Assembly (NCBI GenBank): GCA_001773695.1
Contig: MEXN01000005.1
Span: 139,316-203,315, forward strand
Direction of reading: 5' to 3'
From: Candidatus Amesbacteria bacterium RIFCSPLOWO2_01_FULL_48_25
GTDB taxonomy: Bacteria; Patescibacteriota; Microgenomatia; CAZETR01; Amesbacteraceae
DNA: 64,000 nt
Below, one piece after another: positions 2,971 to 38,583 of this stretch (position 1 is the stretch's first letter; each line of letters opens with the position of its first letter). The position numbers were made by a program, and so were the translations under genes. A model generated the notes under the pieces. That model saw nothing but the letters and a program-made list of their open reading frames with translations, did no database searches and was not told the origin of the DNA.

Positions 2971-4029
2971 ATGACTATCCAACAACTATTGAAATATGTA
3001 ATTGAAAAGAAGGCGTCGGATTTACACTTGCTGGTGGGATCGCCGCCAATTGTGCGGATAGACGGAGTGTTGGCACCGGCGGATGGGGAGAAACCGCTTA
3101 ACGTATCCGAGGTGGAGCAACTGTTGCATGGAGTAATGTCGGTGGAGCAGAAGCAGATATTATCTGTAAACAAGGAATTGGATTTTTCGTTTACCTTGGG
3201 GGAACACGCCAGGTTTAGGGCGAATGTGTATCATCAGAAAAACACTGTGGCTGGGAGTTTCCGGTTTATTCCGGTGGAGGTGGCGGGTATCGATTCCTTA
3301 GGTTTACCGGCGATTATTCGCAATTTGACCCGGCTGAAGCAGGGATTTGTGCTGGTGACCGGGCCGACTGGTCAGGGAAAGTCGACGACGCTGGCTGCCA
3401 TGATTGACGAGATAAATAAGACCAGGGCGGTGCATGTGGTAACGATTGAGGACCCGATCGAGTATGTATACACTCCGATTAAGTCCATTGTCTCCCAACG
3501 AGAGATTCACGGAGACACGCATTCTTGGGAGGTGGCGCTGCGATCAGTGCTGAGGGAAGACCCGGATGTGGTACTGATCGGCGAGATGCGCGATTTTGAG
3601 ACGATCGCGGCGGCTTTGACTATTGCGGAGACGGGACACTTGGTATTGGCTACACTGCACACTAATTCGGCGGCACAGACGATCGATCGGATTGTAGACG
3701 TATTCCCGGAAAACCAGCAGCCGCAAATTAGGCAGCAGTTGTCGGGAAGCCTAGAGGCGGTATTTTCTCAGAGGCTCGTGCCTTTGATTGCCGGGGGGAG
3801 GACGGTGGCTTCCGAGGTCATGCTGGGGACGGCGGCGGTTCGGACGGCAATTCGGGATGGGCGGACGCATACGATTGATAACGTGATAATGACATCGGCG
3901 GAATATGGAATGTTTACCCTGGAGGCGTCTTTGGCGCAGTTGGTAAAGTCCGGAAAAATTTCTGAGGATGTGGCGCTGTCTTATTCGTTTAGGCCGGCTG
4001 ATCTGACGCGGTTTCTTAAAGGAGGATAG
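2971..4029 (+). CDS. pilT: Twitching motility / pilus retraction ATPase PilT
   Basis: GPTGQGKSTT Walker A and HLVLATLHTNSAAQTIDRI; about 350 aa, typical of PilT. Start placed at the MTIQQLL Met. Confidence 0.85.
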   Translation: MTIQQLLKYVIEKKASDLHLLVGSPPIVRIDGVLAPADGEKPLNVSEVEQLLHGVMSVEQKQILSVNKELDFSFTLGEHARFRANVYHQKNTVAGSFRFIPVEVAGIDSLGLPAIIRNLTRLKQGFVLVTGPTGQGKSTTLAAMIDEINKTRAVHVVTIEDPIEYVYTPIKSIVSQREIHGDTHSWEVALRSVLREDPDVVLIGEMRDFETIAAALTIAETGHLVLATLHTNSAAQTIDRIVDVFPENQQPQIRQQLSGSLEAVFSQRLVPLIAGGRTVASEVMLGTAAVRTAIRDGRTHTIDNVIMTSAEYGMFTLEASLAQLVKSGKISEDVALSYSFRPADLTRFLKGG

Positions 4030-8623: not shown

Positions 8624-9082
8624 ATGAGGAACGGCCAAGCGCTAGTGGAGGTAATAATATCTTTTGCCCTTATGCTGGTGGCGTTGGTGGGATTGGTAAC
8701 GGTGGCCACCAAGTCTACTTCTAATTCCGGTTTGTCCCAACGTGAGGCCCAGGCAACGGCTTATGCCTCGCAAGCTATGGCTTGGGTGAAGAGCCAGAGA
8801 AGTACTCTTAGTTGGACTGAATTTTCTGCCAAAAGAGGATCTGTATATTGTTTACCTGGCGTTGACAGTTTTGATTGGGGTACGACGGCTGTGGATTTGG
8901 CAAACTGTGGCTTGTTGTCCGGGACCGAGTATGTTAGGGGGGTGACGGTAACGGGAGTGACCTATTATCCTACCCCGGCGGGTACCCCCATCGACCAAAT
9001 TGTAGCGGATGTGGAGGTGAGGTGGAGAGAGGGGGAAAGATTGGTGAGGAGGAGGTTAACCGCGGTATTTACACCGCATTGA
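8624..9082 (+). CDS. Pilin-like protein (prepilin-type N-terminus)
   Basis: MRNGQALVEVIISFALMLVALVGLV. Confidence 0.6.
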   Translation: MRNGQALVEVIISFALMLVALVGLVTVATKSTSNSGLSQREAQATAYASQAMAWVKSQRSTLSWTEFSAKRGSVYCLPGVDSFDWGTTAVDLANCGLLSGTEYVRGVTVTGVTYYPTPAGTPIDQIVADVEVRWREGERLVRRRLTAVFTPH

Positions 9083-9083
9083 T

Positions 9084-9599
9084 ATGAAAAGACGAGGGTT
9101 TACATTAGTGGAAATACTGGTGTCCATGACGCTATTTGTGATTTTGGCTGTTTCGGTGACGGCATTGGTGGCGTCATTACTTCGCAGCGCTCGCAAGGCG
9201 GCGGTTCTGGGAATTGCTAAGACTGAAGGTGAGTATGCATTGATGGCGATGGCAGAGATGGTCAGGTATGCAGGGGAGGTGGTGTGCTCTGCTGCCGACG
9301 CGGGAGGTCAAACTTTGGAGGTTACGAAACAAAACGGTGACATTATTAATTATAGATATTATCTAACTCCCCTACCTCGGATAAGCTCAGAGAGCGGAGC
9401 GTTGGCGACCCCCTTAAATTCTAGCAGAGTAACACTTACGGCTTGTAGTGGAACCACGGTTTTTACATGTCCGGATCCCCAGACCGTGGATATTTGTTTT
9501 TGGGCGGATGTGCCGGGAGGATTGGATGTGAGCGAGAAGGTGGGGGTAAGTAGCGGGATTCAGTTTCAAACGAAGGTGGTATTGAGAAATAAGGACTGA
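9084..9599 (+). CDS. Pilin-like protein (prepilin-type N-terminal cleavage/methylation domain)
   Basis: MKRRGFTLVEILVSMTLFVILAV. Confidence 0.65.
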   Translation: MKRRGFTLVEILVSMTLFVILAVSVTALVASLLRSARKAAVLGIAKTEGEYALMAMAEMVRYAGEVVCSAADAGGQTLEVTKQNGDIINYRYYLTPLPRISSESGALATPLNSSRVTLTACSGTTVFTCPDPQTVDICFWADVPGGLDVSEKVGVSSGIQFQTKVVLRNKD

Positions 9600-9617
9600 T
9601 GTCTCTATAATGGATTA

Positions 9618-10526
9618 ATGTTTAAGAGTGGTCAGGCGCTTTTGGTAGTGCTTCTAATGTTGGGGGTGGCTCTGACTATTGGGATATCGATCGCTTCTCG
9701 AAGCACAACCGAAGTGGAAATTTCGACAACGCAACAAGAAGCGGCCAGAGCGTTGGAGGCGGCCGAGACGGGAATTGAAAAAGCTTTGGGGGGGGTGGTG
9801 GTTGGCAATGTGGTCGATCAGCCGGTGGATACTAACCCAATTGATACATACTCAGTGAATGTGCAAACGGTGGCCGGATTGCAACAACTAGTGTCGAGGA
9901 CTTATCTGGTGGGAGGTGATATCGCGACGTTTAATATTGAGGATATACCTTCCACAGTTGGTCCGGGAACACCGACTCCGACTCCGAATGAGGGGCCGGG
10001 TGGGCCGAATGCCCGGGTGAGGGTATGTTGGGGCGAGGCGGGGGTAAGTTCGGCCGTGGAGGTATCGCTTTTGTCTCGGCAAAACCCTAATCCTAAGGAC
10101 TACTTTGTCAGAAGGTGGGCTTATGATCCGGACGGGTCGAGAAGGGGTTCGAATAACTTTATGGCTCCGCCGGTGGCTACACCTAACCCGACGATGTGTC
10201 CACGACCGGATAGTGGGGGAAGTTTTAGGTATTATGCTGAGCCGGTGATAGGAAAAGTTGCCACGAAGCCGTTGTACTTACAAGTAAGGACTTTATATAA
10301 CGGCGAAACACCCCAACAGGTAGGAGTGTCGACGGTAAACGGCTCCCCGTGCGGTGGGGCCGGGTGGTGCTGGTTTTTTCCGATGCAGGGCAAAACGATA
10401 ACGGCGGTGGGGGTGGCGGGGCAAGTGACTAAGCGGTTACAGGTGACTGAGTCCTTTGCCGATCCGTGGCCGATATTTGCCGATGTGATATTTTCTGGCT
10501 CGGGATCGGTTGGTCATTCCAATTGA
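9618..10526 (+). CDS. PilX-like minor pilin / pilus assembly protein
   Basis: MFKSGQALLVVLLMLGVALTIGISIASRSTTEVEIS...QEAARALEAAETGIEKAL resembles PilX N-terminal domains. Confidence 0.5.
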   Translation: MFKSGQALLVVLLMLGVALTIGISIASRSTTEVEISTTQQEAARALEAAETGIEKALGGVVVGNVVDQPVDTNPIDTYSVNVQTVAGLQQLVSRTYLVGGDIATFNIEDIPSTVGPGTPTPTPNEGPGGPNARVRVCWGEAGVSSAVEVSLLSRQNPNPKDYFVRRWAYDPDGSRRGSNNFMAPPVATPNPTMCPRPDSGGSFRYYAEPVIGKVATKPLYLQVRTLYNGETPQQVGVSTVNGSPCGGAGWCWFFPMQGKTITAVGVAGQVTKRLQVTESFADPWPIFADVIFSGSGSVGHSN

Positions 10527-10539
10527 TATTTAGAAGTTT

Positions 10540-11571
10540 ATGTCTAATCTGCCCAAAATCGGAATTGATATCGGATCGGCTACTATTAAGGTGGTGGAAT
10601 TAGCGCCGGTTTCTAAAGGTCGGTGGAAATTACTGGCGGCGGCGTCGTCGGTGGTGCCGGTGGGAGGAGTAATGGCAGGAGCGAGCAATCAGGCGGCGAT
10701 AACCAATGCCATTGTCAAGATACTGCGCGAGGCGGGAGTGAGGAGCCGAAAGGCGATAGTGGCGCTGCCTGAGGACCAGATTTCTTCTCATGTGGTGGAG
10801 ATGCCGGTGATGAGTGAGGCGGAGGTGGAGCAGGCGCTACAGTGGCAGGTGGAGCAATATATTCCGATTCCGGCGGACCAGGCGGTGTGGAGCTATCAGA
10901 TTATTCGTCGGGAGCTACCGGGGAATGGAGGAGGAGGAATGGAAGTGCTTTTAGCGGCGGCGGCCCGCCGGATGGTGGAGACGTATCGGCAAGTGGTGGA
11001 ACAGGCGGGGTTGGAGGTGGTGGCCATGGAAACGGAGTTGATGGCGACTGCCCGGGCGGTGGTACCTGAGGCGACGCCGCCTTCTTTGATTGTGGATGTG
11101 GGAGCAAAAAGCACTGACGTGGGAGTGATCGTGGGGGGACAACTGGTATTTGCCAGGACGATTCCGACTGCCGGCCAAGCATTTACGAGGGCGATTGAAA
11201 CTACTTTGGGGTTGGATACTAAACAGGCAGAACAATATAAGAACACGTATGGTTTTTCGGCTACTCAATTGCAGGGAAAGTTGACAGCGGCTATGAAGCC
11301 GGTAATGATGGTCATTGCTTCCGAGATTAAAAAGACGATTGATTTTTATGTATCTAAGCATGCAGGAGAAGTGATCCGGATGGTGATATTGTCCGGGGGA
11401 ATCGCAGCTTTACCAGATATTGTGGGGGCGCTGTCGGAATTACTGGGGTTGGAGGTCACAGTGGGCAACCCGTTTTTGCGAGTGGCGGTGGATCAGATGC
11501 AAGCTCGGCAGTTGGCGGACGGTGGTCCGTTTTATGCAGTTTCGATTGGTTTGTCTATGAGGGAAATATGA
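10540..11571 (+). CDS. pilM: Type IV pilus assembly protein PilM (actin-like ATPase fold)
   Basis: MSNLPKIGIDIGSATIKVVEL start, about 343 aa, followed by PilN/PilO-like genes with overlapping stop/start codons. Confidence 0.8.
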   Translation: MSNLPKIGIDIGSATIKVVELAPVSKGRWKLLAAASSVVPVGGVMAGASNQAAITNAIVKILREAGVRSRKAIVALPEDQISSHVVEMPVMSEAEVEQALQWQVEQYIPIPADQAVWSYQIIRRELPGNGGGGMEVLLAAAARRMVETYRQVVEQAGLEVVAMETELMATARAVVPEATPPSLIVDVGAKSTDVGVIVGGQLVFARTIPTAGQAFTRAIETTLGLDTKQAEQYKNTYGFSATQLQGKLTAAMKPVMMVIASEIKKTIDFYVSKHAGEVIRMVILSGGIAALPDIVGALSELLGLEVTVGNPFLRVAVDQMQARQLADGGPFYAVSIGLSMREI

Positions 11572-12080
11572 TAAATTTTCTGCCGCGGGAACAGCAAAAG
11601 AAAGCTAAATTGGCTGGGATACAGCGGTTGGTCGTGACGTCAACCACAGTGGTGTTGACATTATATATCGTAGCTGGGGCTGGTTGGATGGGGTGGTGGG
11701 CGTATTTGGCGAGACGTGAAAGTTCGGTATCTTTGCAGGTTGAAAATCTAAACCGGGAAATAGAAAGGATGGCGGTTAAAGAGGGGCTGGTGAGACAGAT
11801 AGCTGCTCGTTTGGAGGTAGTAGGGACGGCTTTGGAAGAAAAGAAGATTTCGGGCTTGATCCCCCAAGTCTTGGACGAGCGCGTGGTGGTATCAGCATGG
11901 AATTATAGGTTGGGTGGGGTTTACAGGCTGACAGTTTCGGCAGCAAATCCTACTGATTTGGAAGATTATATGGAGAAATTGCAAAAGATTTACCCCAATT
12001 TGAAGGCGGGGACAGTTTCTTGGACCGCGGGAGGTGACTGGAAAGTAGATATCGTACTGGAAGGAGGAACCAATACGTGA
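11568..12080 (+). CDS. pilN: PilN-like bitopic pilus assembly protein
   Basis: MINFLPREQQKK... then a single TM; position after pilM. Confidence 0.6.
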   Translation: MINFLPREQQKKAKLAGIQRLVVTSTTVVLTLYIVAGAGWMGWWAYLARRESSVSLQVENLNREIERMAVKEGLVRQIAARLEVVGTALEEKKISGLIPQVLDERVVVSAWNYRLGGVYRLTVSAANPTDLEDYMEKLQKIYPNLKAGTVSWTAGGDWKVDIVLEGGTNT

Positions 12081-12781
12081 AGTCTAAATGGGGGTGGGCG
12101 GTTTACCCGGTGTTAGTGGGGTTGTTTATATTGTTTACGGTTAAGTCGGTGATCGATGCTAAAAGTTTTGGCTGGAGCCAAACACGAGAGAGACAAAAGA
12201 GGGTAGCTGAGGAGCAGCAGACCGTTTCTAGGTTGGAGGCAAAGCTTGCGATATTGAGAAAGTTATCGGAGGATGAGATGGAAGCTGACTTGTCGGAACT
12301 GATTACGGCCGTGCCGGTATCTAAGCAGTTGTTTGCAGCTGTCGCCCAGGTGAGGATGGCCGCGACAGTGTCGGGGATCAAGTTGGAAAAATACAGTGCG
12401 CAGGTGGGTGACATCCGTGAGGCGACGGTGAGTGCTCAGAAAGCCAATTCCGATGCGCTACAATTGGCAGTGCTTTTGAATGTGTTTGATCTGCATCAAT
12501 TACGGGAGTTTTTGGAGGTGCTGGAACGGCAGTTGCCCGTCGCTAGAGTGACTGAAGTTGAGTTTGGGGGAAAAAGTGGAGTTCGGGTGACGGTGAAACA
12601 GGGTTATTCCCCGTGGGTGAAGTCGGGAGCGACAGTAGACCAGCCATTGCCAGACTATCAGTCGAAACTGTTACAGGTGAAGAACAAACTGGAGTTGTAT
12701 GAAAGATTGTCCCAGTCGAACATGGCAGAGGCTGAGGAAATAGGGACGGCTAGTGGGAATCTGGGCGGGAGTCTGTTTTAG
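12077..12781 (+). CDS. pilO: PilO-like pilus assembly protein
   Basis: N-terminal TM, coiled-coil; position after pilN. Confidence 0.5.
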   Translation: MKSKWGWAVYPVLVGLFILFTVKSVIDAKSFGWSQTRERQKRVAEEQQTVSRLEAKLAILRKLSEDEMEADLSELITAVPVSKQLFAAVAQVRMAATVSGIKLEKYSAQVGDIREATVSAQKANSDALQLAVLLNVFDLHQLREFLEVLERQLPVARVTEVEFGGKSGVRVTVKQGYSPWVKSGATVDQPLPDYQSKLLQVKNKLELYERLSQSNMAEAEEIGTASGNLGGSLF

Positions 12782-13010
12782 AGATGGGTGGAGCATTTAA
12801 GGTGAGGGATGTGGGGGGGAGATTATGGAGGCTACAGTAAGCTTTGAAAAGAGTTCTGAGGCTGTTTATGATTTGGCCGTGTTTGCCTATTACCCGGCCT
12901 GTATCCTCGGGGCTGACTGAAATCGATATGTTGCCGGGGTTAGTGGAGATTTGTAGTGATTCGGGCTTGGAAAGGAGCGGGCGGATAAGAAAGGTTAAAA
13001 ATTCTTCCAT
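12750..13010 (-). CDS. KH-domain RNA-binding protein (YlqC/UPF0109-like) downstream of rpsP
   Basis: GRVIGKHGQIINSLR KH motif. Conserved rpsP-KH gene pair. Confidence 0.55.
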   Translation of the reverse strand: MEEFLTFLIRPLLSKPESLQISTNPGNISISVSPEDTGRVIGKHGQIINSLRTLFKAYCSLHNLPPTSLTLNAPPISKTDSRPDSH

Positions 13011-13219
13011 AGTTTTCGGAGGGAGTTGGTGGGTTGGGCACCCTTTTTTACCCAGGACTTAAGAAGGTTATGGTCCACTGTCAGCTTTTTGGAGTCTGGG
13101 TGGTAGTGACCTAAGGAGGCAATAAAGCGACCAGTAATTTTGGAATTTTCTTCCATGACTACTACCCGGTAGTGGATATCGTGCTTTTTTCCTGTGGGAG
13201 AAAGCTTAATTTTGAGCAT
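12995..13219 (-). CDS. rpsP: 30S ribosomal protein S16
   Basis: MLKIKLSPTGKKHDIHYRVVVMEENSKITGRFIASLGHYHP matches the S16 N-terminus. Confidence 0.85.
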   Translation of the reverse strand: MLKIKLSPTGKKHDIHYRVVVMEENSKITGRFIASLGHYHPDSKKLTVDHNLLKSWVKKGAQPTNSLRKLWKNF

Positions 13220-13237
13220 AAATATGGGGTTATTATA

Positions 13238-13894
13238 TCAGCTGGGAAATAGTTTATCCAGAGCAGCGATGGCTGCAGCAGTTTCGGCCTTTTGCTTGCT
13301 GGGGCCGGTGCCGGTAACAAGTGTATGCCCTGGGATTTGTACTTGGACTGTGAAAGTTTTGGCGTGATCCGGCCCGCTGGTTGAGTTTACATGGTATGCA
13401 GGGGTGCCGAGACCCTGGCTTTGGGATTTTTCCTGAAGAAGGCTTTTGGGGTCTTTGGTGGGAAGATCGCTGGTAAGAACTGAATCTGGGAAAACCTGGG
13501 TTAGGTAAGTCTCGCAAGTTGGTAGCCCGGAATCGAGATAAAGAGCACCCAAAACCGCTTCGAAAGTGTTGGCCAAGAGGGAGGGGTTGGACCTGCCCCC
13601 AGAGTCTTCTTCGCCACGACTTAAGAGAAGCATTTTGTCTAAGCCTAAGGAGAGTGCTTTTTGGGACAGAGTGGAAGTTTGAACCAGATAGGACCTACGA
13701 TTTGTGAGCTCACCCTCGGTAATATCGGGGAGAAGGCGGTAAAGGCGGTGGGAAATTACAAACGAGAGAATGGCGTCGCCTAAAAATTCTAGCCGTTCGT
13801 TGGAACTGATTCCAGGGTGTTCATTGCAGTAGGACCGGTGGACAAGGGCGGACTTGAGGTTGTTGGGCTCGTGAAAAAGTGAGGCGAGGTTCAT
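13238..13894 (-). CDS. rnc: Ribonuclease III
   Basis: [15 protein letters not shown] signature plus C-terminal dsRBD ([13 protein letters not shown]). Confidence 0.85.
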
Positions 13895-14493
13895 GAGGGT
13901 GGGGAGTCTGGCTCAGAATCTTGTTCCAAGGCGTTTATTAGGTCGCCAACCGTGAGTATTTGAGCCAGTTTGTCTTCTGGTAAGATGACGTTAAGTGAAT
14001 CCTGGAGGCGTTGGAGTAAGTCTGACACATTTTGCTCGGTTAGGTCCAAGTCAGTCGTAAAGTTGAGGTCAGGGGTAACCGTCGCCAGGTCTTTTTTGAA
14101 TTCGTCGGCGAGAAAGTTTAATATAGCGGATTTGAGGTTTGGGTTCATATGGGATTTGATAATGTGGCCCAGAGCACCGTTTATGAATGCCGGTGAGTTT
14201 GCCCCGCCGTATTCTTTGGCTAACTCGATGGCCTCATCAATGATAACCTTGTAAGGGGCTTTTTTGTCAACGGTCAATTCGTAGACGGCCAGCCTGAGAA
14301 TGGCCAGGTCGATGGGGTTGAGCTTGTCGATGGGCCACTCCGGGGCAGCGGCAGCAATGAGTGGGTCTATTTGGGGCAACTGTTTCCAGAGATCTGTGAC
14401 GAGAGGGTCCGGTTTGTTTTGAAACGAGGATGAAAAGAGATGTTGGATTATCTTGGTGCGGCGTTGGTGTCTGGGATCTGAGCGGGTTTTCAT
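13891..14493 (-). CDS. nusB: NusB antitermination factor fused to a C-terminal acyl-carrier-protein-like domain (phosphopantetheine Ser apparently replaced)
   Basis: N-terminal 135 aa is NusB-like ([10 protein letters not shown]..., [37 protein letters not shown]). The C-terminal 65 aa aligns to ACP helices ([18 protein letters not shown]...[11 protein letters not shown] versus [21 protein letters not shown]...). Sits where acpP lies next to rnc in the Firmicute/E. coli gene order. Confidence 0.6.
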
Positions 14494-14541
14494 TTCACCT
14501 TTGGGCCTTTGTATGAAATCGCATTGATATGGTAGTTATGG

Positions 14542-14715
14542 TCACGATCTCATATCTCTACCGTGATAGTAGCCGCAGTGGGAGCAGACGCGGTGGGGGC
14601 GGGTGGGTTGGTGGCAGTTGGAGCAAGGAACCAGGGCTGGAATGGAGATTTTGTGAGTGGCCCGGCGTTTGCCTTGGCGATGAGTGGACCAGCGACGCTT
14701 GGGAAGTGGAGTCAT
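14542..14715 (-). CDS. rpmF: 50S ribosomal protein L32 (below the 60-aa ORF-track threshold)
   Basis: Reverse strand translates MTPLPKRRWSTHRQGKRRATHKISIPALVPCSNCHQPTRPHRVCSHCGYYHGRDMRS, the L32 pattern with its C-x2-C...C-x2-C zinc ribbon. Confidence 0.75.
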   Translation of the reverse strand: MTPLPKRRWSTHRQGKRRATHKISIPALVPCSNCHQPTRPHRVCSHCGYYHGRDMRS

Positions 14716-14733: not shown

Positions 14734-15096
14734 CTATTTTGGAATTTGCCTAGTTTGATGGTTGACGCCTAGCAGTGCGACACCGGTCAAGAGGACGTCC
14801 GTTATTTCGTAGCCGAGATAAAGAAGCTCAGGTGCTAATAACAATAGACCGGCAATGAGGGGAGGTATATGTTCGCTGGCGGTAGCGGTAAGCGATATGA
14901 TAAACCCGGCGGCGCAAACCCTAAATCCGTGTTGGAGGAGTTTTTTTTGGTTGTTCTGAGCAGTTGAAGGTATTTCAGCTTTAGAATTGGGACTCGTGAT
15001 TTGGGGGAAAATGGGAGCCAGCATGTGATTGGCAAATCGATTACCAGCGTCTTTGAGGACTCCTATTCCTACTGAAAAAGATGATTCTGATGACAT
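14734..15096 (-). CDS. Hypothetical small membrane protein
   Basis: 120-aa ORF with a hydrophobic C-terminal half, between recG and rpmF. Confidence 0.3.
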   Translation of the reverse strand: MSSESSFSVGIGVLKDAGNRFANHMLAPIFPQITSPNSKAEIPSTAQNNQKKLLQHGFRVCAAGFIISLTATASEHIPPLIAGLLLLAPELLYLGYEITDVLLTGVALLGVNHQTRQIPK

Positions 15097-17049
15097 TTAG
15101 TTGGGCTGGACAAGGGCAATCTTATCTTTTTGAGTGAGTTTGTGCAAAAGCGGGTATTGGTCTAGGTCAGGAAAGATTTCTTTGGCTTCCTTTTTGGCCT
15201 TTTCAATGAGCGATAGGTCGGTGTAGGCGGCGATTTTGAGTTGGGGTGTGCCGTGCTGGGCGGTGCCGTAAATTTGACCGGGGCCGCGAAGGCGGAGGTC
15301 AATTTCGGCAAGCTCGATACCGGAGTGGTGGGTTTCCAAGGCTTTAAGTCTTTGTGTATCTGAATCGGAAAATAAGAGGCAGTAGGACTGGTCGGAAGAG
15401 CGACCTACGCGGCCGCGAAGTTGATGAAGCTGGGCCAGGCCGAAGCGCTCGGCAGCCTCGATAACCATGAGTGTGGCATTGGGGATGTCCAGTCCGACTT
15501 CGACGACCGGAGTAGTAACTAATATATCTAACTCCCCGGCTCTGAATTTATTTATGACTTCATCCTTTTCTTTTGCCTTTAACTTGCCGTGAAGAAGACC
15601 AAGCCTATTTTTGGCAAACGTTTCTTTTAATTTTTTAAATTCGACAGTGGCTGCTTTGACTGATTTGACAGACTCGCTTTCTTCGATAAATGGACAGACG
15701 ATAAAAGCTTGTGATTGGCGATCGGTGATTAGTGATTTGATCCACTCATAAGCGGCGGCGCGTTTGGTTTCGGGGACGACCCAGGTTTTGACTTTGAGCC
15801 TTCCTTGGGGGGGGTCAGTTAGGACTGAGAGGTCCAGATCTCCATATAGAGACAGAGCGACAGTTCTGGGAATGGGGGTGGCGGTCATGGTGAGGATATG
15901 GGGAGATTCTCCTTTGGAAGCCGCAAGGGTGCGTTGGGTGACGCCAAAACGGTGCTGTTCGTCGATAACTACGAGACCTATCCGGTTGAAAGATTTATTA
16001 AGGAGAGCGTGAGTACCGACTATGACATGGCTTGCTTGCTGAATGGCTTTATGGCTGGAGGTTATTATGTCGACATTGATACCTAATGGTTCGAAGAGGG
16101 ATTTGAGAGTGATGTAGTGTTGGGAGGCAAGTATCTGGGTGGGGGCTAAAATGAGTGTTTGGAAGCCATTGAGGTGAGTGCTGTAAGCGGCGATAGTGGC
16201 GACTACAGTTTTACCTGAGCCGACGTCGCCTTCCAGAAGCCGGTTCATGGGATGAGGTAAAGAGAGATCGGCAAGAATTTCTTTCAGGCTTTGGTTTTGT
16301 GAAGGAGTTAGAGTGAATGGCAGGGAAGAGACAAACTGGAGAATTTTGGCTTGGTCGATGTGGAAAGGATGGGTAAGCTTGATTTGGTGCCAGGATTGTT
16401 TGTGAATGAGTGATGTGAGTTGAAGTAAAAATAGCTCATCAAAAGCCAAGCGACGATGGGCGGGAGCGACCTGATCCAGGCTTTCGGGGAAATGAATATG
16501 TCTTAGGGAGTTGGGGTCAAACGGGGGAATATTGTCAAGATGGCCAAGGAGAGGGAATATTTTGGCGCGGAGCCATTTGGAGCTTACCCCTGCCGTTTCC
16601 GGGTAAATCGGGACGATTCTTCCCATGTGGATAAGCGCTGGGTTATTAGTCGTTTGCTCATAATCGGGGGAAATAATGGACTTTTTGGGGCCGAAGAAAT
16701 CTACTTTTCCGTGGAGTCCGATGATGTCCCCCACTCTTAGGGTGCGAGTCAGAAAAGTCTGGTTGAACCAGACTATGTCAATGGGTCCTGAATCGTCGGA
16801 AACGACGGCTTTTTGGATGAGTTTGCGGCTGCGGGTGAACTCATTTTTGATCGATTCAATTTTGCCGATGATGGTGACTGTTTCCCCGGGCTGGACAGTA
16901 AAGAGGGAAGAAATTTGGGACCGGTCTTCATAGCGGAAGGGCAGATGATAGAGGAGATCGAAGATGGACGAGAGGCCCAACTTACTCAGTTTTTTGGCCA
17001 TGATGGGACCGACACCGGGAAGGGAGGTGACGGGAGATGCGAGGTCCAT
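15097..17049 (-). CDS. recG: ATP-dependent DNA helicase RecG
   Basis: N-terminal wedge region (LPGVGPIMAKKLSKLGLSSIFDLLYHLPFRYEDRS), DEQH helicase motifs, 650 aa. Confidence 0.85.
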   Translation of the reverse strand: MDLASPVTSLPGVGPIMAKKLSKLGLSSIFDLLYHLPFRYEDRSQISSLFTVQPGETVTIIGKIESIKNEFTRSRKLIQKAVVSDDSGPIDIVWFNQTFLTRTLRVGDIIGLHGKVDFFGPKKSIISPDYEQTTNNPALIHMGRIVPIYPETAGVSSKWLRAKIFPLLGHLDNIPPFDPNSLRHIHFPESLDQVAPAHRRLAFDELFLLQLTSLIHKQSWHQIKLTHPFHIDQAKILQFVSSLPFTLTPSQNQSLKEILADLSLPHPMNRLLEGDVGSGKTVVATIAAYSTHLNGFQTLILAPTQILASQHYITLKSLFEPLGINVDIITSSHKAIQQASHVIVGTHALLNKSFNRIGLVVIDEQHRFGVTQRTLAASKGESPHILTMTATPIPRTVALSLYGDLDLSVLTDPPQGRLKVKTWVVPETKRAAAYEWIKSLITDRQSQAFIVCPFIEESESVKSVKAATVEFKKLKETFAKNRLGLLHGKLKAKEKDEVINKFRAGELDILVTTPVVEVGLDIPNATLMVIEAAERFGLAQLHQLRGRVGRSSDQSYCLLFSDSDTQRLKALETHHSGIELAEIDLRLRGPGQIYGTAQHGTPQLKIAAYTDLSLIEKAKKEAKEIFPDLDQYPLLHKLTQKDKIALVQPN

Positions 17050-19763: not shown

Positions 19764-20069
19764 ATGAGTTATCCGCCTAAGGTAGGGATAGCGGGTGCGG
19801 TGCACCATGAGAGGGAGAGCTTTCGGTCTGGGTGGGAAAAGGCGCGGGAGCTTTTGGGCCAGAAAGTGTATCGAGGAGAAATCCCGGCTGGAGATTTGGA
19901 GCTGTTGAGTGCTTGGTATGTGATTAGGAGTGAGTTGTTGGTGAGTCGTGATGGGAAAGCTTTTGATAAAAGGAGGGTGGAGTTTGAATCAGGACTGCCT
20001 GAGGGAAATGACAAATTGGATAACGCTATTGTTTTGATCACCCAGATTATGGCTGAGAACGGGATTTAG
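19764..20069 (+). CDS. Hypothetical protein
   Basis: 101-aa ORF, no recognisable motif. Confidence 0.3.
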   Translation: MSYPPKVGIAGAVHHERESFRSGWEKARELLGQKVYRGEIPAGDLELLSAWYVIRSELLVSRDGKAFDKRRVEFESGLPEGNDKLDNAIVLITQIMAENGI

Positions 20070-20125: not shown

Positions 20126-21286
20126 ATGTCAAGACTTGAGCGCAACAAGGGAATGGGTGCGTCTGGGGAAGAGGTCGATTTATTTAAGTTGTATTCGGGC
20201 CAAGGGGATAAACTGGATGTTCTTTACCGTGCACTAGATGGATTGCGAAAGGTGCGCCAGGATCCTAACGACCGTGGAGTTTTGAATGATGTGTTAGCCC
20301 AAAGAGAGGGGGAATTTTTAGTTAAGGCGAGTCCACAGCTGGGGGGGAGGAGTCCGTTAATGTTGTTGCATGAGAAGTTGGATGAGGAACAGAGTAGAGC
20401 CAACTTTGGTCAAGCGGCTTCGATAAAGAGCTCTAGGCGTGGGCAAGAAGATTTTGGCCCAAATTTTGGGGCAGTATTTTCGAAAAAAGAAATAATGTCA
20501 TTGCCTGCGGGTGTGGAGACGGTGCACTTGTCGGCACAGGAGTTAATTAATAAGGCGGTTATCGACAGGCTTTTGCGGGCTCATCCGAATTTGAAAGTGT
20601 TGCAGATCCCAGAGAGTCATATGAGGATGGTGGGCCCGGGAATTCGAGCGATTTTGGAAAAACGTGGTATCGAATTGAGGATTGGAAGGGTAAGGGATAT
20701 ACCATTTTATGATGACGGGGGCGGAGGAAAGATGGAGCATGAAGATGGTTATCGGGAAAAGAAAGAGGTTTACGCCGCTTTATTGGAAGGTGGCCGAAAA
20801 GGTGAAATATTCGCTTTGATGGAGAAGCATGAGTTGAACGAAGCTTTGGTAGCAAAAGAGTATTTGAGTGGTTCTTGGAAGTCGTTGTCTGATGTGGCGA
20901 GCGAGTTGGGTTTGCCGTTAAGTCGGGTGCAGAGATGCATATCGGCTTTGATGTGTTGGGCGGGGCGTCCAATCCAAGATAAAATAGCACAAAGGCGAGC
21001 GGCTAATTTGGAAAAGTTGGTATTGAGATTGGAAAAGGCTGAGGCCCAGGGGAAGGAGCGGGATAGGTTGAGGAGCGAGTGTTCTGTGGGAGATGAACTG
21101 CCACCCAGGGAATTGCGGGTGGCGAGGTGGAAGGATTGGCAACGAGTAGTCACGTTATATAGGGCCAACCCCGACTCTTTAGAGAGGTTGAAGGAACGTC
21201 ACTCGGGTAGATATAGGGCGTTGATTAATTATCTTCATATTGAAGAACTGGGGGGGCAAAACCGGAACTTCGGGCGAATTGGCTGA
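20126..21286 (+). CDS. Hypothetical protein with sigma-70 region-4-like HTH
   Basis: Segment LSDVASELGLPLSRVQRCISAL resembles the sigma region 4.2 HTH. The rest is unrecognised. Confidence 0.35.
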   Translation: MSRLERNKGMGASGEEVDLFKLYSGQGDKLDVLYRALDGLRKVRQDPNDRGVLNDVLAQREGEFLVKASPQLGGRSPLMLLHEKLDEEQSRANFGQAASIKSSRRGQEDFGPNFGAVFSKKEIMSLPAGVETVHLSAQELINKAVIDRLLRAHPNLKVLQIPESHMRMVGPGIRAILEKRGIELRIGRVRDIPFYDDGGGGKMEHEDGYREKKEVYAALLEGGRKGEIFALMEKHELNEALVAKEYLSGSWKSLSDVASELGLPLSRVQRCISALMCWAGRPIQDKIAQRRAANLEKLVLRLEKAEAQGKERDRLRSECSVGDELPPRELRVARWKDWQRVVTLYRANPDSLERLKERHSGRYRALINYLHIEELGGQNRNFGRIG

Positions 21287-28825: not shown

Positions 28826-28899
28826 GGTGGGCACTGGAGGCTTTGCACCCCCGACCCTTGCAATGTCAATGCAATGCTCTACTCCTGAGCTAAGTGCCC
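28825..28899 (-). tRNA. tRNA-Val(GAC), CCA encoded; atypical T-loop (TGCAAAG)
   Basis: Hand-folded as GGGCACT-TA-GCTC-AGGAGTA-GAGC-A-TTGCA-TTGACAT-TGCAA-GGGTC-GGGGG-TGCAAAG-CCTCC-AGTGCCC-A-CCA. Perfect acceptor, D and anticodon stems; U33 and A37 present. Confidence 0.7.
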
Positions 28900-38073: not shown

Positions 38074-38158
<85 letters not shown>

Positions 38159-38166
38159 TTTTTTAG

Positions 38167-38240
38167 GTGGAGCCAACAGGACTCGAACCTGTGACCTTCT
38201 CTGTGTAAAAGAGACGCTCTACCAACTGAGCCATGGCTCC
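38167..38240 (-). tRNA. tRNA-Val(TAC)
   Basis: GGAGCCA-TG-GCTC-AGTTGGTA-GAGC-G-TCTCT-TTTACAC-AGAGA-AGGTC-ACAGG-TTCGAGT-CCTGT-TGGCTCC-A. Confidence 0.85.
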
Positions 38241-38250
38241 AGATTTTTTG

Positions 38251-38333
38251 TGCGGCGAGAGGGAGTTGAACCCACACGTCCTTGCGGACACTGGCTCCTG
38301 AAGCCAGCGCGTCTGCCATTTCGCCATCGCCGC
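38251..38333 (-). tRNA. tRNA-Leu(CAG)
   Basis: GCGGCGA...CTGGC-TTCAGGA-GCCAG...long variable arm...GGGTTCAACTCCC...TCGCCGC-A. Confidence 0.85.
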
Positions 38334-38400
38334 TCTGGTTGTATTTTATCATTTGTATTAGGGATGATTTGATTTGTCTTGGGGTATAATTGACAGGTAA

Positions 38401-38484
38401 GCCGGGATGCTGAAACTGGTAGACAGGCATGCTTGAGGGGCATGTGTCAGCAATGGCGTGGAGGTTCGAGTCCTCTTCCCGGCA
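38401..38484 (+). tRNA. tRNA-Leu(GAG), preceded by a ggTATAAT -10 element
   Basis: GCCGGGA...CATGC-TTGAGGG-GCATG...long variable arm...GGTTCGAGTCC...TCCCGGC-A. Confidence 0.85.
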
Positions 38485-38510
38485 CATTAATTAGTATAAT
38501 TTTGTTTCCC

Positions 38511-38583
38511 GCAGCGGTAGCCAAGGTGGTCAAGGCACCTGTCTGAAGAACAGGCCATGCAGGTTCGACTCCTGCCTGCTGCA
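38511..38583 (+). tRNA. tRNA-Phe(GAA), preceded by a tagTATAAT -10 element
   Basis: GCAGCGG...CCTGT-CTGAAGA-ACAGG-CCAT-GCAGG-TTCGACT-CCTGC-CTGCTGC-A; 3-bp D-stem with a long D-loop. Confidence 0.75.

Follow-up and report, generated by a model that had tools for sequence, protein, structure and literature searches.

A NusB protein fused to a serine-less domain of acyl carrier protein ancestry in the rpmF–rnc gene block of Candidatus Amesbacteria

In a 64,000-nucleotide stretch of a Candidatus Amesbacteria genome (contig MEXN01000005.1, positions 139,316 to 203,315; the whole stretch is hereafter called the window), one complete open reading frame (ORF) between the genes of ribosomal protein L32 and RNase III encodes a NusB protein joined in frame to a C-terminal domain that resembles the acyl carrier protein (ACP). 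The original prediction, made by reading the letters of the window, had given the coordinates of this ORF exactly, but the strand is to be corrected to minus, as in the ORF list its ATG lies at 14493–14491 and its stop codon at 13893–13891. The fused gene and its parts are as follows.

13891–14493, minus strand: complete fused ORF nusB::ACP-like, 200 residues plus stop (ORF list, domain matches)
14494–14502, minus strand: Shine-Dalgarno-like AAAGGTGAA, directly 5′ of the nusB ATG (read from the sequence)
14149–14493, minus strand: NusB domain, residues 1–115, compact, with helices at 7–22, 30–37, 39–49, 60–76, 81–95, and 100–116
14146–14148, minus strand: Met116 codon, the former ACP-like start codon and the fusion junction (comparison with the unfused locus L001)
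13918–14142, minus strand: ACP-like four-helix domain, residues 118–192, with helices I 120–131, II 153–167, III 173–178, and IV 182–191
14035–14040, minus strand: Thr152-Glu153, equivalent to Asp35-Ser36 of canonical ACPs (alignment; helix II begins at E153 in the structural model)
13999–14022, minus strand: helix II face D158-L-L-Q-R-L-Q-D165, ACP positions 41–48, where the surface is best conserved across the family
13894–13917, minus strand: acidic, proline-rich C-terminal tail, residues 193–200, predicted disordered and variable in homologues
13891–13894, minus strand: ATGA overlap, in which the stop codon of nusB::ACP-like overlaps the rnc start by 4 nt (ORF coordinates)

On every test run, the N-terminal part is a genuine NusB. 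Pfam NusB (PF01029) matched residues 31–113 (E = 3.4e-24), and the NCBIfam equivalog model TIGR01951 nusB scored 94.8 bits vs. a cutoff of 88.35, thus an equivalog-level match. Foldseek aligned this part with the NusB crystal structures 1eyv, 1tzt, and 3d3b (E = 8e-6 to 3e-4) at template-modelling (TM) scores of 0.67–0.74, normalised to the target, and the all-helical NusB fold and its Arg-rich N-terminal helix were both present. The closest NusB sequences were those of Candidatus Amesbacteria (Microgenomates, Candidate Phyla Radiation (CPR)/Patescibacteria). A complete NusB had been predicted, and this stood, but its length is about 115 residues rather than about 135; the NusB of Escherichia coli has 139 residues, while the fusion has 115 and adds the C-terminal ACP-like domain.

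The C-terminal part was evaluated by the two checks that had been proposed for it, hidden Markov model (HMM) searches against PP-binding/ACP models and structure prediction; the former found similarity to PF00550 and to eight NCBIfam ACP models, and the latter produced a four-helix ACP fold with TM scores of about 0.8 to ACPs of fatty-acid synthesis (FAS). In detail, Pfam PP-binding (PF00550) matched residues 123–189 over profile positions 2–67 of 67, with 23.2 bits for the isolated domain (E = 8.5e-5) and 20.5 bits in the full protein, compared with a gathering threshold of 20.8. The E-values of the eight NCBIfam models were 2e-8 to 1e-4, and none of the scores came near the trusted cutoff of its model (TIGR00517, 26.3 bits vs. 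70.45). A phmmer search of all PDB sequences returned ACPs only, the best being the Helicobacter pylori ACP (E = 6e-7).

The full-length AlphaFold2 (AF2) model, with a predicted local distance difference test (pLDDT) value of 82.7, contains a six-helix NusB part, a connector of about three residues (N-P-N), and then four helices, and its Foldseek matches were NusB structures and, separately, ACP structures. When the C-terminal part was modelled alone from 28 family sequences (pLDDT 85.5), helices were found at residues 3–14, 36–50, 56–59, and 65–76 of the domain, a layout that we take to be that of E. coli AcpP, with boundaries agreeing residue for residue; the top-50 PDB matches of this model were all ACPs (TM 0.76–0.82, rmsd 1.6–2.0 Å over 72 residues). 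The predicted ACP-like C-terminus was therefore found, but it extends over about 75 folded residues followed by a disordered tail of 8–10 residues (pLDDT <50), not over 65 residues. The domain has the same four-helix fold as the type II FAS ACP (AcpP/AcpA; PF00550, TIGR00517) and, like AcpP, is acidic (14 D+E vs. 5 K+R), and it keeps the equivalents of AcpP F28, D31, L32, L42, L46, P55, and T64-V65. Since it belongs to a conserved family of about 80 distinct sequences, this is no chance similarity. The family, hereafter the Microgenomates Ser-less ACP-like family, was defined by about 80 residues encoded between nusB and rnc, F-L-A-N-E-F in helix I, T-V-G-D-L, and no Ser36.

The phosphopantetheine (Ppant) acceptor serine is replaced in the window protein. 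A gapless alignment with the H. pylori ACP set DLDLTEQNV opposite DLGADSLDV, placing Glu153 at Ser36 and Thr152 at Asp35, and the start of helix II in the model agreed with it, as the original prediction of a degenerate ACP with a replaced acceptor Ser had held. The family was compared at this site over 81 distinct members: Ser stands opposite Ser36 in only 5, and the other 76 have P, E, A, D, Q, or further residues. ACP position 35 was S, T, D, or N in 72 of the 81, and Ser or Thr in 55, a spectrum that is the known preference of helix N-caps and not what a modification site would leave. In one fused clade (the L009/L013 group), 2–4 residues are deleted right after position 35, at the N-terminus of helix II. 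Ser/Thr at position 35 was also considered as a shifted attachment site, and was rejected based on the N-cap spectrum (S, T, D, N, G) and this deletion.

The helix II face was altered as well. In the Amesbacteria alignment, R45 and Q47 were invariant and D41 nearly so, and in the wider Microgenomates family R occupied position 45 in 59 and Q position 47 in 60 of the 81 sequences. True ACPs dock onto AcpS and the FAS enzymes through an acidic recognition helix, part of which is replaced by the conserved Arg45/Gln47. Thus, where true ACPs have Ser36, a DSL motif, and the acidic M-A-L-E-E, the ACP-like domain has Glu, no DSL, and Q-R-L-Q. Loss of the acceptor Ser throughout the Microgenomates family indicates that the ACP-like protein cannot be an acyl carrier; the domain is clearly ACP-derived, yet, with the defining Ser missing, no member of the carrier family in the functional sense.

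A Ser near the canonical site was observed in a few divergent members. The L061 protein of Candidatus Beckwithbacteria (3350–3613) reads DFNLSSLEM with Ser at position 36, and the L026 protein (3364–3615) reads DLNIDSKIAL with a serine close to that site. Members of this type may be intermediates between true ACPs and the serine-less form.

The fused gene lies within a block of genes on the same strand, listed here from its upstream end.

15097–17049, minus strand: recG helicase gene, upstream end of the conserved block, which is kept in 80 Microgenomates loci (RecG_wedge, DEAD, and Helicase_C matches)
14734–15096, minus strand: 120-residue ORF (ORF120) between recG and rpmF, no Pfam match, C-terminal half hydrophobic
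14542–14715, minus strand: rpmF (ribosomal protein L32), upstream neighbour (PF01783, E = 3.6e-20)
13238–13894, minus strand: rnc (RNase III), downstream neighbour (PF14622, PF00636, and dsrm matches)
12995–13219, minus strand: rpsP (ribosomal protein S16) (PF00886, E = 4.9e-15)
12750–13010, minus strand: gene of a KhpA-type KH-domain protein (PF13083, E = 7.8e-16)

By consensus matches only, a promoter-like site was found 5′ of rpmF and no terminator-like site on the coding strand inside the block. In the sequence, no motif comparable to the Shine-Dalgarno-like one of nusB precedes Met116, and the ATGA overlap probably couples translation of nusB::ACP-like with that of rnc. The Rfam scan returned tRNAs only, with no rRNA leader or BoxA in the window, and neither an rRNA operon nor rpsJ lies within the 64 kb. 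ORF120 was considered as YceD/DUF177, which precedes rpmF in E. coli, and was rejected as it had no Pfam match. At its position, an ORF of the same length was called in L004 and L091, and one of 106 residues in L001.

To evaluate the distribution of the ACP-like unit, one genome per GTDB species was scanned via the NusB-containing alignment, which produced 80 Microgenomates loci, and their neighbouring genes were classified with the family HMM and phmmer. All 80 share recG–rpmF–nusB–...–rnc–rpsP(–KH). The ACP-like unit was a separate ORF in 32 species loci, formed an in-frame fusion with nusB in 11 (L009, L013, L014, L017, L021, L028, L033, L037, L039, L047, and L079) besides the window, and was absent from about 35, in which nusB abuts or overlaps rnc directly; two loci stop at a contig edge and were left unclassified. 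Loci without the gene include L036, L040, L043, L046, L056, L064, L067, and L068 and about 27 others (Levy-, Gottesman-, Shapiro-, and some Woesebacteria). The pairing of nusB with rnc downstream of rpmF is thus a conserved trait of the group irrespective of the ACP-like insert. The reading frame of the ACP-like unit was intact in all 43 carrying loci and in the window. No fusion of the ACP-like unit to rnc occurred among the 80 loci, although this junction also overlaps. A further unfused relative of the "type D" fusions, L089, carries the unit in the same slot.

The original prediction held that an ACP remnant had been retained by being fused to NusB, which is contradicted by an independent gene in 32 and a fusion in only 11 of the 80 species loci; phylogenetic distribution, which it had proposed to examine, showed that the fusion does recur in relatives, but that the separate gene is the commoner state. 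The unfused state, being widespread, is presumably ancestral, and the fusion secondary and recurrent. Consistently, a profile search with the C-terminal domains found about 30 free-standing proteins of 69–87 residues, 39–63% identical to the window domain; in the comparison that defined the Ser-less family, the identity to stand-alone members was 47–63%, and the TVGDL motif was common to both. Stand-alone members occur in Candidatus Amesbacteria too, one of them, encoded on the contig of locus L001, being named by NCBI "Acyl carrier protein [Candidatus Amesbacteria...]". A HMMER scan of 1.84 billion representative proteins indicated a small family, with about 20–25 single-domain clusters (50% identity) above about 65 bits; below these, single-domain matches were mainly ordinary ACPs at about 45–58 bits, and multi-domain proteins of the polyketide synthase (PKS) type were found throughout the ranking.

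Several irregular records were observed among the sequences surveyed. P0121, 85 residues identical to the C-terminus of the window protein, was considered as a split gene and rejected, because its gene call on L004 is broken by an N run; positions 3890–3960 of L004, a scaffold near-identical to the window, hold this N run and unrelated flanking bases within nusB. Two metagenome proteins were apparently chimeric: the first ~95 residues of P0002 equal those of the window protein and the rest equal P0004, and P0007 joins a P0018-like N-terminus to the P0004 C-terminus, which suggests chimeric assembly or recent recombination among co-occurring strains. Record titles of loci carrying the Microgenomates block read "uncultured Gammaproteobacteria", "uncultured Pseudomonadales", or "Bacteriovorax sp." (L008, L009, L012, L013, L015, L017, L020, L026–L033, and others; L043), and these titles of GTDB/third-party-annotation (TPA) metagenome-assembled genomes (MAGs) appear to be taxonomic mislabels.

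The fusion junction was then compared with the unfused locus L001, ordered recG–orf–nusB(119 residues)–ACP-like(86 residues)–rnc–rpsP–KH, where nusB and the ACP-like gene overlap by 17 nt out of frame and the ACP-like gene and rnc by 4 nt. At the junction, the sequences are ...GGCCACATTATCAAATCCCATATGAACCCAAAC... in the window and ...GGCCAAATCATATCAACGTATGAATCCCAACC... in L001. They differ by a net 2 nt in length directly 5′ of the ACP-like ATG, and through this difference nusB enters the ACP-like frame and loses its last few codons and its stop. Homologues of the fusion were found in independent assemblies, one protein being 99% and others 66–69% identical. The same junction was present in the independent scaffold L004 and in the L090/L091 homologue from other samples (56–75% protein identity), and P0004 was found on nine contigs.

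A neighbour-joining tree of concatenated RecG, RNase III, and NusB (986 columns, 100 bootstraps) placed the window as sister to the unfused L023 and L025 (97/100), within a core Amesbacteria clade (86/100) whose other 16 species are unfused. The fused L009, L013, L014, and L021 formed one clade (100/100), as did the fused L079, L033, and L047 (100/100), while the fused L028 was sister to L078/L035, one of them a species without the gene and the other unfused (100/100). Junction peptides differed among the fused groups. By these sequence comparisons, the fusion arose at least four times.

Selection on the domain was quantified as the ratio of nonsynonymous to synonymous substitution rates (dN/dS) by the Nei-Gojobori method. 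As synonymous sites were saturated when the window was compared with the nearest relatives at hand, closer pairs with unsaturated synonymous sites were used instead, from separate (L029, L038, L050) and fused (L013, L014, L021) forms. In the same pairs, dN/dS was 0.07–0.15 for the ACP-like region, 0.13–0.25 for NusB, and 0.05–0.10 for RNase III, and the range of the ACP-like region held for both separate and fused forms. Such low values indicate that the ACP-like protein is functional. Of the two options that had been offered for the domain, a relic is contradicted by these values, and the fitting one is a recruited interaction module.

Outside the ACP-like family, the nearest relatives of the domain are FAS-type ACPs. 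The order recG ... ACP-like–rnc ... rpsP–KH parallels recG–...–acpA–rnc...rpsP–ylqC of Bacillus subtilis, where we take recG to precede fapR and acpA to lie directly upstream of rnc, and rpmF...ACP-like parallels yceD–rpmF–plsX–fabHDG–acpP of E. coli. Hence, the synteny that had been proposed is right in that the ACP-like unit occupies the acpP slot before rnc and that L32, RNase III, S16, KH, and RecG are its neighbours, but the template was a composite of two organisms, as rnc of E. coli is not near acpP. In B. subtilis, the lipid-synthesis operon is fapR–plsX–fabD–fabG–acpA (PMC1950310). The simplest reading of this gene order would be that the ACP-like gene descends in situ from acpP and that the fab genes were deleted. 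No FAS, PKS, or non-ribosomal peptide synthetase (NRPS) partner enzyme was found in the 64-kb window or in the conserved block of the 80 related loci, and phmmer queries for AcpS, Sfp, FabG, and PlsX, a weak test confined to these 64 kb, found nothing below E = 0.2 among the ORFs of the window. Microgenomates and CPR bacteria are generally reported to be without fatty-acid/lipid synthesis (PMC7143001; PMC7242380).

Based on these results, the following course can be proposed. A small ACP-derived gene would descend from the ACP of type II fatty-acid synthesis, in a slot directly upstream of rnc like that of B. subtilis acpA; its serine was lost, yet purifying selection keeps the gene, whose product is an acidic protein of four helices in which the surface of helix II (DLLQRLQD) has been re-tuned. 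The net 2-nt change in the window lineage removed the out-of-frame 17-nt overlap and joined the ACP-like unit to NusB via a linker of about three residues. In other bacteria, NusB acts in transcription antitermination. It binds S10/NusE and, in rRNA leaders, the BoxA RNA, and there nucleates the antitermination complex, which also has a part in presenting the stem processed by RNase III. The NusB part of the fusion would bind S10 and BoxA RNA likewise, while the ACP-like part may serve as a protein–protein adaptor on NusB that recruits or positions another component of rRNA transcription or processing. RNase III is our guess for the leading partner, and stands first because the ACP-like gene is probably coupled to rnc in translation.

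That NusB is fused here to a serine-less, selected, ACP-derived module which was ancestrally a separate gene is nearly certain. A functional link of this module to NusB and to rRNA is about evenly balanced. Co-transcription, overlapping frames that suggest coupled translation of the two, at least four fusions with a linker of about three residues, and purifying selection on the fused forms speak for the link; by the Rosetta-stone argument, NusB and the ACP-like protein most likely act in one complex, and physical binding to NusB would explain the repeated fusions. Taken as a whole, a real NusB fusion in which a non-carrier interaction module acts together with NusB in transcribing and processing rRNA seems to us a reasonably probable account. 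Its most specific form, in which the ACP-like protein is a lineage-specific subunit of rRNA antitermination/processing, i.e., an AcpP-derived Nus-type factor that binds NusB and bridges to RNase III or another processing factor, is proposed tentatively, as a possibility and not as the expected outcome.

Several observations weigh against the NusB-linked module. The gene was lost in about 45% of the sampled Microgenomates species, so that its function is dispensable or replaceable, and overlapping frames make a fusion mutationally cheap, so that recurrence may partly reflect opportunity. The interaction and the rRNA role would follow from gene neighbourhood and fusion logic, and the full-length AF2 model had a predicted TM score (pTM) of 0.59, with no confident packing between the domains. 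The trees behind the fusion count are neighbour-joining only. As to the origin, descent in situ from acpP rests on synteny with distant model organisms, and no Microgenomates locus was found with a canonical DSL-motif ACP in the slot.

Opportunity is central to an explanation that we regard as unlikely, in which the module is functional but has a partner unrelated to NusB, i.e., RNase III alone, ribosome assembly with S16/KhpA, or a role as general acidic chaperone, and in which the fusions arose opportunistically via the 17-nt overlap. Given this overlap, one small indel is enough for a fusion, and a 4-nt overlap couples the ACP-like gene to rnc as well, inside a ribosome-biogenesis block; moreover, intermediates of mitoribosome assembly contain ACPs as structural modules, and PDB 6sga and 7aoi were among the matches of the domain. 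What speaks against it is that at least four independent fusions were to NusB and none to rnc though both junctions overlap, and that purifying selection on the fused forms across diverged species (L013, L014, L021) indicates that permanent tethering to NusB by a linker of about three residues is compatible with function.

A decaying, functionless acpP remnant, surviving only through its embedding in an essential operon, is improbable. The missing acceptor Ser, the absence of the gene from about 35 of the 80 related species, and scores far below the cutoffs of ACP equivalog models would all be expected of a remnant, but a dN/dS as low as those of NusB and RNase III largely refutes it, and a frame intact in 43 loci and the window, a confidently predicted four-helix fold, and R45 and Q47 that are invariant in Amesbacteria and predominant elsewhere are likewise at odds with decay.

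Even less credible is a domain that still works as a carrier, phosphopantetheinylated on Thr152 or another hydroxyl by a phosphopantetheinyl transferase (PPTase) encoded elsewhere. Ser or Thr does occupy position 35 in 55 of the 81 sequences and Ser position 36 in 5 (e.g., NLSSLE in L061), and the PPTase search covered 64 kb of the genome only. However, the window has Thr, not Ser, at position 35, and D, N, G, E, Q, K, or F stand there in other members, as suits a helix N-cap; residues at the N-terminus of helix II are deleted in the fused L009/L013 group, and the acidic recognition helix is altered by Arg45. Within the window, a weak test revealed no ORF resembling a PPTase, FabG, or PlsX, and Microgenomates/CPR are reported to be without fatty-acid synthesis (PMC7143001; PMC7242380).

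An assembly or sequencing artefact, i.e., a spurious frameshift merging overlapping genes, can practically be dismissed: although the unfused arrangement differs by a small junction length change only and metagenome contigs of this family do hold artefacts (the N-gap gene call P0121 and the apparent chimeras P0002 and P0007), it is refuted by recurrence, as the junction is identical in the independent scaffold L004, has the same architecture in the 56–75% identical homologues from other samples and in P0004 with its nine contigs, and is joined by further fused lineages with different junctions in GTDB MAGs.

Elsewhere in the window, a type IV pilus-like gene cluster lies at 8624–12781 on the plus strand, with several small proteins with prepilin-type N-termini (e.g., RGFTLVEILV at 9084–9599), a PilM/FtsA-like protein at 10540–11571, and two ORFs without Pfam match (11568–12080 and 12077–12781); the cluster adjoins the KH gene in the relatives L001 and L006 too. 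Rfam found twelve tRNA genes, six of them within about 500 bp on both strands (38074–38583) and others at 28828, 35734, 37293, 39159, 46022, 50599, and 51613, and no rRNA, RNase P RNA, or riboswitch in the window. A 386-residue ORF (20126–21286, plus strand) had a sub-threshold DUF1699 match (31.4 bits vs. a gathering threshold of 33.4), and the adjoining 101-residue ORF (19764–20069) had no match.

No description of a NusB–ACP fusion or of this Microgenomates ACP-like family was found in the literature searched. Genes of the family are labelled "acyl carrier protein" or "hypothetical protein" and the fusions plain NusB, and the ACP labels wrongly imply residual lipid metabolism. The Rosetta-stone prediction of a NusB–ACP-like interaction is testable with recombinant proteins and needs no culturing, and the position in an rRNA/ribosome block together with the repeated fusion to NusB makes it a testable proposition that the ACP fold moonlights in the transcription or processing of rRNA.

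Among known systems, the ACPs of mitoribosome assembly (the Trypanosoma brucei mt-SAF32/mt-ACP chains, PDB 6sga and 7aoi) and the ACP-like ribosomal protein family Ribosomal_L50 (PF10501) gave weak matches to the ACP-like domain. They show the ACP fold in use for ribosome biogenesis, and the ACP-like domain resembles ACP-LYRM modules and PF10501 only in sharing this general fold. In mitochondria, MALSU1-L0R8F8-mtACP is such an ACP-LYRM module in mitoribosome assembly, and these ACPs are holo or acylated and bind LYR-motif proteins via the acyl-Ppant arm, whereas the ACP-like domain lacks an attachment site. In concept, the nearest precedent is the mitochondrial ACP of Plasmodium falciparum, which lost its Ppant site after loss of type II FAS (FASII) and survives by stabilising Isd11-Nfs1 (Falekun et al., 2021, PMC8547962); a divergent ACP without prosthetic group was likewise kept there as a protein-binding subunit. 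The Plasmodium protein resides in a eukaryotic organelle with the Isd11-Nfs1 Fe-S complex as its partner, while the ACP-like domain is bacterial, encoded in an rRNA/ribosome block, and fused to NusB. A serine-less ACP descendant under strong purifying selection in many Microgenomates would thus be a bacterial counterpart of the Plasmodium "ACP without Ppant".

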